The position numbers were made by a program, and so were the translations under genes. The notes beneath the pieces are model-generated. The model was not told the origin of the DNA, did no database searches, and saw nothing but the letters and a program-made list of their open reading frames with translations. Positions 13,645 through 14,016 of a stretch of 64,000 nt of DNA are shown one piece after another; positions within the stretch are counted from its first letter, which is position 1, and every line of letters begins with the position of its first letter. Source of the stretch: Parcubacteria group bacterium (GTDB lineage Bacteria > Patescibacteriota > Minisyncoccia > Phycocordibacterales > GCA-002724975); the NCBI GenBank assembly GCA_002724975.1, contig PBQF01000039.1, positions 1,152 to 65,151 of the forward strand, read 5' to 3'.

Positions 13645-13695
13645 AGCTAAAAACAATTGCCGCACCCCGATTGTAAGTCGTCGGAGGTGCGGCAA
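13645..13695 (-). terminator. intrinsic terminator of cassette 3 (TTGCCGCACC / GGTGCGGCAA 10-bp stem, 17-nt loop, TTGTTTTT)
   Basis: Perfect 10-bp inverted repeat at 13657-13666 and 13686-13695, followed on the minus strand by a T-rich run. Confidence 0.65.
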
Positions 13696-13717
13696 GGTAA
13701 ACGAGGCTATTCCAGCG

Positions 13718-13969
13718 TCAGGCCAGATTGTCGAAGTCTTCCCACTTGGGCTTTGTGGAACCGTCGAAAAGGACTTGAACCATCACCGTTCGGGGATGGC
13801 CAATAACCAATCTTGGTGGCTGGAAATCCTTGGCAATCCCTCCCTGTCCACTGGACTTACTCCTTACTCTCTGCCCCACTTTAATTTTCTTGGAAGAGGG
13901 TTCAGGGCCATCAGAAACTGATTGAACCTCACCCTTCTCTGTAACGAGGATAAATATTCTATTCCCCAC
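13718..13969 (-). CDS. hypothetical small protein (about 83 aa, GTG start; alternative TTG start at 13987), GC-rich cassette 3
   Basis: GGAGGT lies 6 nt upstream of the in-frame GTG at 13967-13969. Beta-rich KVGQRVRSKSSGQGGIAKDF... with a weak resemblance to small Tudor/KOW-like domains. Confidence 0.45.
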   Translation of the reverse strand: MGNRIFILVTEKGEVQSVSDGPEPSSKKIKVGQRVRSKSSGQGGIAKDFQPPRLVIGHPRTVMVQVLFDGSTKPKWEDFDNLA

Positions 13970-13988
13970 GGCATCACCTCCAATCAAG

Positions 13989-14016
13989 AAGTTACCAGAA
14001 GATTACAACTTGTCAA
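13989..14016 (-). promoter_or_regulatory. sigma70-like promoter of cassette 3 (TTGACA-16-TAACTT)
   Basis: -35 at 14011-14016 lies 1 nt from the RmuC stop codon; -10 at 13989-13994. Confidence 0.45.

Follow-up and report, generated by a model that had tools for sequence, protein, structure and literature searches.

A GC-rich insert between rmuC and an initiator tRNA gene in a marine Candidatus Paceibacterota genome: a probable orphan small-protein gene with its own expression signals

The genomes of bacteria in the candidate phyla radiation (CPR) are tiny and are usually called streamlined. Here we describe a short, GC-rich segment, named cassette 3, in a stretch of 64,000 nucleotides (nt) from contig PBQF01000039.1 of a Parcubacteria group bacterium (assembly GCA_002724975.1); this whole stretch is referred to as the window. 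Cassette 3 lies on the minus strand between rmuC and an initiator tRNA gene, and it contains a small open reading frame (ORF) that is already annotated as hypothetical protein QGH03_01115. It is probably an ordinary orphan gene with no assigned function. The source organism is a marine Candidatus Paceibacterota species: two metagenome-assembled genomes at NCBI (GCA_030740505.1 and GCA_036012405.1, both Candidatus Paceibacterota bacterium) hold contigs 99.9% identical to the window, and short contigs in ENA, Logan and JGI match it at 99.6-100% identity.

Along the minus strand, in descending coordinates, the locus runs from rmuC through cassette 3 to a tRNA-Met gene, then to a VTT-domain gene on the opposite strand, a further tRNA-Met, cassette 2, tRNA-Asp, genes for GNAT and GrpB proteins, cassette 1, two tRNA-Thr genes, and prfB, ftsE and ftsX. 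The rmuC coding sequence occupies 14017-15048, and the Pfam RmuC family was found on the identical NCBI contig. The tRNA-Met gene next to cassette 3 (anticodon CAT, minus strand, 13544-13615) lies outside the insert. It is of the initiator type, because it has an A1xA72 mismatch at position 1:72, an A11:U24 pair and two of the three anticodon-stem G:C pairs. A TATAAT −10 box, read from the sequence at 13629-13634 on the minus strand, 13 nt before the tRNA, belongs to a promoter of the tRNA's own. An earlier note on this DNA, made by reading the letters alone, had described cassette 3 as GC-rich, and this is borne out by a GC fraction of 0.49, compared with 0.385 (38.5%) over the window as a whole and 0.35-0.40 in the genes nearby.

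Sequences resembling a full set of expression signals surround the ORF, all on the minus strand. A −35-like hexamer, TTGACA (14011-14016), touches the rmuC stop codon TAA (14017-14019, read from the sequence), just as had been described. After a spacer of 16 nt that ends in TGG comes TAACTT (13994-13989); together with the TG at 13997-13996 it makes an extended −10-like element, TGgTAACTT (13989-13997), of the pattern TGnTAnnnT, which is a consensus match only. The hexamer TTGACA occurs in 30 copies in the window (both strands), and the combination TTGACA-N15-18-TAnnnT at five sites in 128 kb of strand, two of which are those of cassettes 2 and 3. Further downstream, a Shine-Dalgarno (SD) sequence, GGAGGT (13976-13981), lies 6 nt 5' of an in-frame GTG, again in agreement with the earlier description. 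There are 105 GGAGG sites in the window, and eight of them sit 4-10 nt before a start codon that opens an ORF of at least 60 codons; cassettes 1, 2 and 3 account for three of these eight, and the full GGAGG is absent from most host genes.

At the other end of the ORF, an intrinsic terminator hairpin (13657-13695) begins 22 nt past the stop codon. Its arms, TTGCCGCACC (13657-13666) and GGTGCGGCAA (13686-13695), form the perfect 10-bp stem that had been reported earlier. The 17-nt loop given with it needs correcting: the perfect arms are separated by 19 nt, and after a bulge and four more inner pairs a loop of 10 nt is left. The 83-nt stretch containing the hairpin has a minimum free energy of −28.1 kcal/mol (z = −3.1). 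A U-rich tail, UUGUUUUUAGCUGAUUU (13640-13656), follows and overlaps a −35-like TTGTTT of the tRNA promoter; the distance from this terminator to the initiator tRNA is 41 nt. Judged from the letters alone, the promoter, SD and terminator thus appear as consensus-level signals that bracket the ORF exactly.

Two versions of the ORF have been called, and both the GTG and the upstream TTG reported for it are present. The shorter coding sequence, of 83 amino acids (aa), extends over 13718-13969 (minus strand), with a GTG start at 13969-13967 and a TGA stop at 13720-13718, and encodes the product that had been quoted. The longer version, of 89 aa (13718-13987), starts at an in-frame TTG (13985-13987) that has no SD; it is the one in the NCBI annotation, and JGI calls the 83-aa version on three contigs (L097-L099). 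The TTG is 1 nt past the −10 element and would therefore fall outside a transcript made from this promoter. For this reason, and because of its missing SD and the JGI calls, the GTG start is preferred.

The frame of cassette 3 has a host-like three-base periodicity that is the best of the six frames (p = 0.002 against shuffles), with G at the first codon position at 0.35, T at the first position at 0.15, and GC lowest at the second position. Cassette 1, which has genuine homologues, reaches an equal level of periodicity. The GC fractions at the three codon positions (GC1/2/3) are 0.55/0.42/0.50, compared with about 0.47/0.30/0.35 in host genes. A structured non-coding RNA was considered and rejected. 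No Rfam family matched cassette 3 at gathering score, nor at a threshold of E <= 10, and the 371-nt cassette-3 transcript is no more stable in its fold than shuffled versions (z = −1.3); with no RNA family and an unremarkable fold, a structured RNA is improbable, and the segment is better read as protein-coding. The strong SD, the promoter and terminator at the ends of the ORF and the periodicity all favour coding without proving it, and the most probable reading of cassette 3 is a small gene for a protein, equipped with expression signals of its own.

The 83-aa product would be basic, with an isoelectric point (pI) of 9.8, and no transmembrane segment or signal peptide is evident in it (judged by eye, not computed). 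Predicted tryptic peptides include IFILVTEK, GEVQSVSDGPEPSSK and TVMVQVLFDGSTK. Searches for relatives returned very little. In 5.8 billion protein clusters (a word-indexed search) the product matched itself only; Pfam-A gave no family by hmmscan at E <= 10; PHROGs, PADLOC and NCBIfam gave no matches, nor did PDB sequences. No relative of it was found in GenBank phages and PLSDB plasmids by tblastn, or in IMG/VR and JGI metagenome contigs by pattern and tblastn scans, and neither the window nor the roughly 110 loci that were fetched holds a paralogue or DNA relative of cassette 3. A full phmmer search of 1.84 billion representatives gave one match besides the product itself, the 548-aa protein P0002. 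This protein has a propeller of the DUF6242 / PSII_BNR type, and its N-terminus looks phage-tail-like by eye. The repeated blades of the propeller are similar to the 89-aa version at residues 4-28 (GNRIFILVTEKGEVQSVSDG compared with GNNIFVLVGENGEIQTSSDG), where a 20-residue strand-turn-strand ending in SDG is similar to one blade, with 58% identity over 24 residues. The match has E = 8.5e-6, a value summed over four near-identical repeats, and a profile built from the P0002 blades scores 16.3 bits on one 20-residue stretch of the product (residues 8-27). Of the blade motif, in which two strands precede S-x-D-x-G-x-T-W, the T-W is missing in the product, and no Pfam BNR model matches it. With all filters off, the blade profile finds a single unit in the 89 residues and no second blade. 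A two-blade mini-propeller, which was also considered, is for this reason unsupported. The similarity to P0002 is best taken as a lead and not as homology.

The structure prediction proposed in the earlier note was run, and it is of low confidence. A single-sequence AlphaFold2 model has a mean predicted local distance difference test (pLDDT) score of 49.4, with strands at residues 3-10, 15-20 and 61-68 only. The product is predicted to consist of an N-terminal beta-hairpin, a disordered middle rich in Lys, Arg, Ser and Gly, and a C-terminal strand. A Foldseek comparison of this low-confidence model with the PDB gave a best match at E = 3.3, which is not meaningful.

To place the segment in a comparative context, species representatives in GTDB were used to obtain 80 loci with genes for RmuC relatives (59-74% identity); among the representatives scanned, none has an RmuC above 80% identity. 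None of these loci encodes a relative of cassettes 1-3, and tRNAs are present within 1.5 kb downstream of rmuC in only two of the 80. In one of them, a Wolfebacteria genome (L008), rmuC is followed by 68 nt and then by the initiator tRNA on the same strand. This adjacency of rmuC and the initiator tRNA without an insert rests on that single relative. A −35-like TTGCAA lies 1 nt past the rmuC stop codon in L008, so a promoter touching this stop codon is not peculiar to the cassette-3 insert; the similarity between the cassette-3 promoter region and the L008 spacer is not significant (p = 0.38 and 0.16), and the analogy is one of position only. In the second locus, L055 (RmuC 72% identical), rmuC and prfB are 1.1 kb apart, with four tRNAs and an unrelated 69-aa ORF between them; in the window this interval is 3.9 kb. 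Together, these two arrangements mark cassette 3 as extra DNA of about 330 bp that is specific to the lineage and separates rmuC from the initiator tRNA, in line with the insertion proposed earlier.

A separate observation in L055, the nearest relative with a syntenic locus, concerns the plus strand just upstream of its initiator tRNA (5410-5590), where TTGACG-17-TATACA is followed by about 140 nt of GC-richer sequence and a terminator. There is no SD or convincing ORF there, the fold has z = −2.7, there is no Rfam match, and the unit may be an undescribed small RNA.

Along with the comparative data, the signals around the ORF make it fairly probable that cassette 3 is an expressed, horizontally acquired orphan gene for a small protein with an accessory function. 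Here the expression, the GTG start, the protein fold and the foreign (mobile-element or phage-like) origin are all inferred. The segment 13657-13985 would be a lineage-specific insert of about 330 bp, foreign-looking in composition, that acts as a small autonomous gene. Transcription would begin from a sigma-70-type promoter, TTGACA-16 nt-TGgTAACTT, right after the rmuC stop codon; since no terminator intervenes, read-through from rmuC is also possible. Ribosomes would bind the full GGAGGU and start at the GTG at 13969 to give the 83-aa basic protein, and the hairpin with its U-tract would end transcription 41 nt before the initiator tRNA, which would use its own promoter.

A number of observations weigh against this interpretation. 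The −10 box is weak (three of six consensus positions) and the promoter was not reported by a stricter promoter scanner; furthermore, the SD would fall at the extreme 5' end of an mRNA made from the predicted start site. The length of the ORF is in itself not significant, as at least 83 codons are found in 11% of mononucleotide shuffles of the region 13640-14016 (P = 0.11), and on the antisense strand the codon-aligned frame is likewise free of stops over 100 codons. The cassette-3 segment is carried by same-species contigs only, and nine others, from different samples, are all identical across the ORF; this shows that the segment is fixed in the sampled population, yet it provides no signal of selection. 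The only two single nucleotide polymorphisms (SNPs), at 13994 and 14014, lie upstream of the ORF and come from one contig of about 1.15x coverage. With an ORF invariant in these nine contigs, strain variation is uninformative for the ratio of non-synonymous to synonymous substitution rates (dN/dS), and with no homologue found, a test of conservation or dN/dS is impossible. The AlphaFold2 model has a pLDDT of 49, with residues 23-58 below 50, and the absence of phage, plasmid or defence similarity, of an integrase and of flanking direct repeats leaves nothing that shows the route of arrival.

The chance length of the ORF and the open antisense frame, along with the lack of homologues and the low-confidence structure, also speak for a different reading, which we regard as clearly the less probable of the two though deserving of real weight: that the ORF is untranslated, with the GC-richer segment being either a leftover of acquired DNA without function or the source of a small non-coding RNA made immediately upstream of the initiator tRNA, and that the SD-like and ORF features are fortuitous. 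The small-RNA-like promoter-to-terminator unit of about 140 nt that occupies the slot upstream of the initiator tRNA in L055, with neither SD nor ORF, points in the same direction. Against it, the coincidence of an ideally spaced GGAGGT, an in-frame start and 83 open codons has a chance of about 1-2% at the local base composition (estimated from stop-codon frequency), the periodicity at p = 0.002 falls in exactly the frame of cassette 3, and the stop codon is placed 22 nt from the terminator stem; the fold (z = −1.3) and the empty Rfam search are not what a structured transcript would lead one to expect. The single phmmer match suggests another origin, in which the ORF would be a decayed piece of a larger beta-propeller gene (BNR/Ycf48-like) from a degraded mobile element, for example one for a phage tail or receptor-binding protein. 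P0002 is the sole match, with its blades aligned to residues 4-28, and we hold this origin to be quite unlikely: the E value of 8.5e-6 sums four repeats, the blade profile gives only 16 bits over 20 residues and no second blade, the Trp of the Asp-box is missing and Pfam has no BNR match. An intact promoter, SD and terminator that fit the ends of the ORF exactly would also be unexpected for a random fragment.

A third proposal takes up the weak resemblance by eye to small beta-barrels of the Tudor/KOW kind that was pointed out in the earlier note; such a protein would bind the ribosome or nucleic acid. In KVGQRVRSKSSGQGGIAKDF the pattern of Gly, Val and Lys is loosely KOW-like by eye, the pI is 9.8 and beta-strands are predicted. 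However, there is no match in Pfam at E <= 10, in NCBIfam or among PDB sequences, the model shows three strands only and at pLDDT 49 is too poor to decide on a five-stranded, SH3-like barrel, the putative motif lies in a segment with pLDDT below 50, and Foldseek finds nothing below E = 3 in the PDB. Since the suggestive stretch is in the least confident part of the model and no family or PDB match exists, the Tudor/KOW label is unsupported, and we consider such a function very improbable.

The reading of cassette 3 as an acquired and expressed orphan gene can be compared with several known systems. Phage morons (Cumby, Davidson and Maxwell 2012, PMC3594210) are independent units of promoter, gene and terminator, deviant in GC content and inserted between conserved genes. 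Cassette 3 resembles them in its one small ORF, which has a sigma-70-like promoter and a factor-independent terminator to itself (at the level of consensus), in its GC content of 0.49 compared with 0.38 in the flanks (GC3 0.50 compared with about 0.35), and in being extra DNA, with no recognisable mobility gene, between genes that are adjacent in L008. It differs in lying outside any phage or prophage, with rmuC, tRNAs, prfB, ftsE/X and a P-type ATPase as neighbours, and in having no match in PHROGs, IMG/VR or GenBank phages. By analogy with morons, its role would most likely be an accessory, non-core function.

A second comparison is with species-specific orphan genes (SSOGs; Vakirlis and Kupczok 2024, PMC11293555), whose GC content on average equals that of the conserved genes of their genome and which are rare within a species. 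Similarly, cassette 3 has no homologue beyond one species, is short and is predicted to be partly disordered. In contrast to SSOGs, it is 11 GC points above its genome, and it is present and identical in 10 of the 10 assemblies examined. This elevated GC content, unlike that of natively born orphans (PMC11293555), favours acquisition from outside. The resemblance to BNR / Asp-box blades (PSII_BNR, PF14870; DUF6242, PF19755; P0002) is confined to one blade: a single unit is matched, the conserved Trp is missing, no Pfam model applies and the remaining 60 residues of the product are unrelated.

A further comparison is provided by the tRNA cluster itself. The window contains, at 10224-11937, a 1.7-kb segment with cassette 1, two perfect 36-nt tandem repeats and the GrpB and GNAT genes. 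This segment is absent from the same-species contigs L096, L098 and L101 and present in the window, L001, L094, L100 and L102. It is bounded by direct repeats of 11 nt, TAcTATGCGCG at 10213-10223 and TAaTATGCGCG at 11938-11948, of which the right one is made up of the final 5 nt of tRNA-Asp and 6 further nt. The segment is a strain-variable islet at the 3' end of tRNA-Asp, with no integrase in sight. Because a strain-variable insertion is proven in it, the tRNA cluster can be regarded as an insertion hotspot. Cassette 3 has in common with the islet a foreign-looking composition and a place in a cluster that accepted insertions. The islet has its 11-nt repeat with the tRNA 3' end and varies between strains; cassette 3, however, lies 5' to its tRNA, is not flanked by a repeat and does not vary in presence or absence. 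A search around 13616-14016 found no flanking repeats, and neither shared cassette ends nor target duplications were found around cassette 3; there is no integrase among the annotated genes within 10 kb on either side.

It had also been proposed that cassette 3 shares its architecture with the other cassettes, and for cassettes 1 and 2 this holds in no more than a loose sense. Cassettes 1 (10407-10679) and 2 (12330-12602) have in common with it only their strand, size, elevated GC content, full SD, −35 hexamer TTGAC(A/T) and terminator. The long-loop terminators and the tight packing against a tRNA do not extend to them: their terminator loops are 4 nt in cassette 1 and 3 nt in cassette 2, and the terminators lie about 170 and 143 nt, respectively, from the next tRNA. 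Furthermore, cassettes 1 and 2 have consensus −10 boxes, leaders of 40-70 nt with 5' hairpins and long, structured 3' untranslated regions (UTRs), none of which is found in cassette 3. Their transcripts give fold z-scores of −6.3 (cassette 1, 10310-10722) and −5.0 (cassette 2, 12155-12672), compared with −1.3 for cassette 3. Similar motifs, GGAGAACAAGAATCC and GGCAGAACAAGAACC, occur in the 3' UTRs of cassettes 1 and 2 and not at cassette 3; in metagenomes this motif is tied to the cassette-1 family, and its remaining matches are chance ones in unrelated GC-rich contigs. The features that would define a family with cassettes 1 and 2 are thus absent from cassette 3.

Cassette 1 belongs to a family of small helical-hairpin proteins of CPR bacteria (MADHHPQ..., P0003-P0008), with homologues at 52-72% identity in other CPR-like contigs. 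These occupy varied genomic sites without nearby tRNAs and are always GC-richer than their flanks, with a conserved 3' UTR. The gene in the window resembles cassette 3 in its strand, size, GC content above that of the host, full GGAGG, TTGAC(A/T), intrinsic terminator and location upstream of a tRNA; it differs in having homologues, the 3' UTR motif, a GC3 of 0.82, z = −6.3 and an AlphaFold helical hairpin at pLDDT 87.6, none of which applies to cassette 3. Cassette 2 is an orphan with a perfect consensus promoter, a structured leader and a 170-nt structured 3' UTR. The proteins of cassettes 1 and 2 are also present in Tara data.

A wider proposal would place cassette 3 in a set of five or more GC-rich small genes, each a self-contained unit, in this AT-rich genome. 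They would in effect be chromosomal 'morons' without a prophage, deposited in and around the tRNA cluster by an as yet unrecognised mechanism. The other members would be cassettes 1 and 2, a pair of ORFs at 20890-21340 and a zinc-ribbon repeat gene at 34250-34723. Each would carry a strong promoter, a full SD of the kind lacking in host genes and a terminator, and the tRNA-Asp islet would be a case caught in the act. We regard this proposal as improbable.

On its own, cassette 3 opens no long-standing question. If it is expressed, a CPR genome gains one more small protein restricted to a single species, and foreign-looking single-gene inserts beside essential tRNAs would then show that CPR genomes still acquire and keep accessory DNA. 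What is gained here is a corrected start codon (GTG, 83 aa) and the removal of the Tudor/KOW label. More informative are two of its neighbours, namely the strain-variable island at tRNA-Asp and the conserved, hypervariable cassette-1 family.

Several observations on these neighbours can be added. The minus-strand transcripts of cassettes 1 and 2 have their 5' hairpins immediately past the predicted start site, and the 3' UTR motif is conserved in the cassette-1 homologues L085-L087, L093 and L116. When the window is compared with L001 over 20 kb, six of the 13 SNPs are located within 10489-10709, in cassette 1. All three in the ORF are non-synonymous (R15Q, G54E and C64Y), each leading to a residue found in other members of the family, a pattern that suggests allele exchange or diversifying selection. 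At position 12166, in the terminator stem of cassette 2, the window has G and all nine other same-species contigs that cover it have A, so that the window carries the minority allele.

Farther along the minus strand, the region 20830-21370 is a GC-rich island (about 50%) with two overlapping small ORFs followed by a hairpin terminator. The ORFs encode 72 aa (21122-21340, with a stretch that by eye is hydrophobic and membrane-like) and 87 aa (20890-21153); both have codon periodicity at p of about 0.01, are uncalled in the NCBI annotation of the identical contig and have no Rfam match. At 34250-34723, also on the minus strand, a GC-rich ORF of 157 aa is built from three tandem copies of a unit of about 37 aa that carries a zinc-ribbon-like CxxC...CxxC, in DNA where two further frames are open too. 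Finally, in L008 (5180-5362) the 16 nt that end the initiator tRNA, TCCGGCCCCCGCAACA, recur exactly about 165 nt downstream, and the two copies flank a short GC-rich insert, providing another example of a tRNA 3'-end duplication in a related CPR genome.

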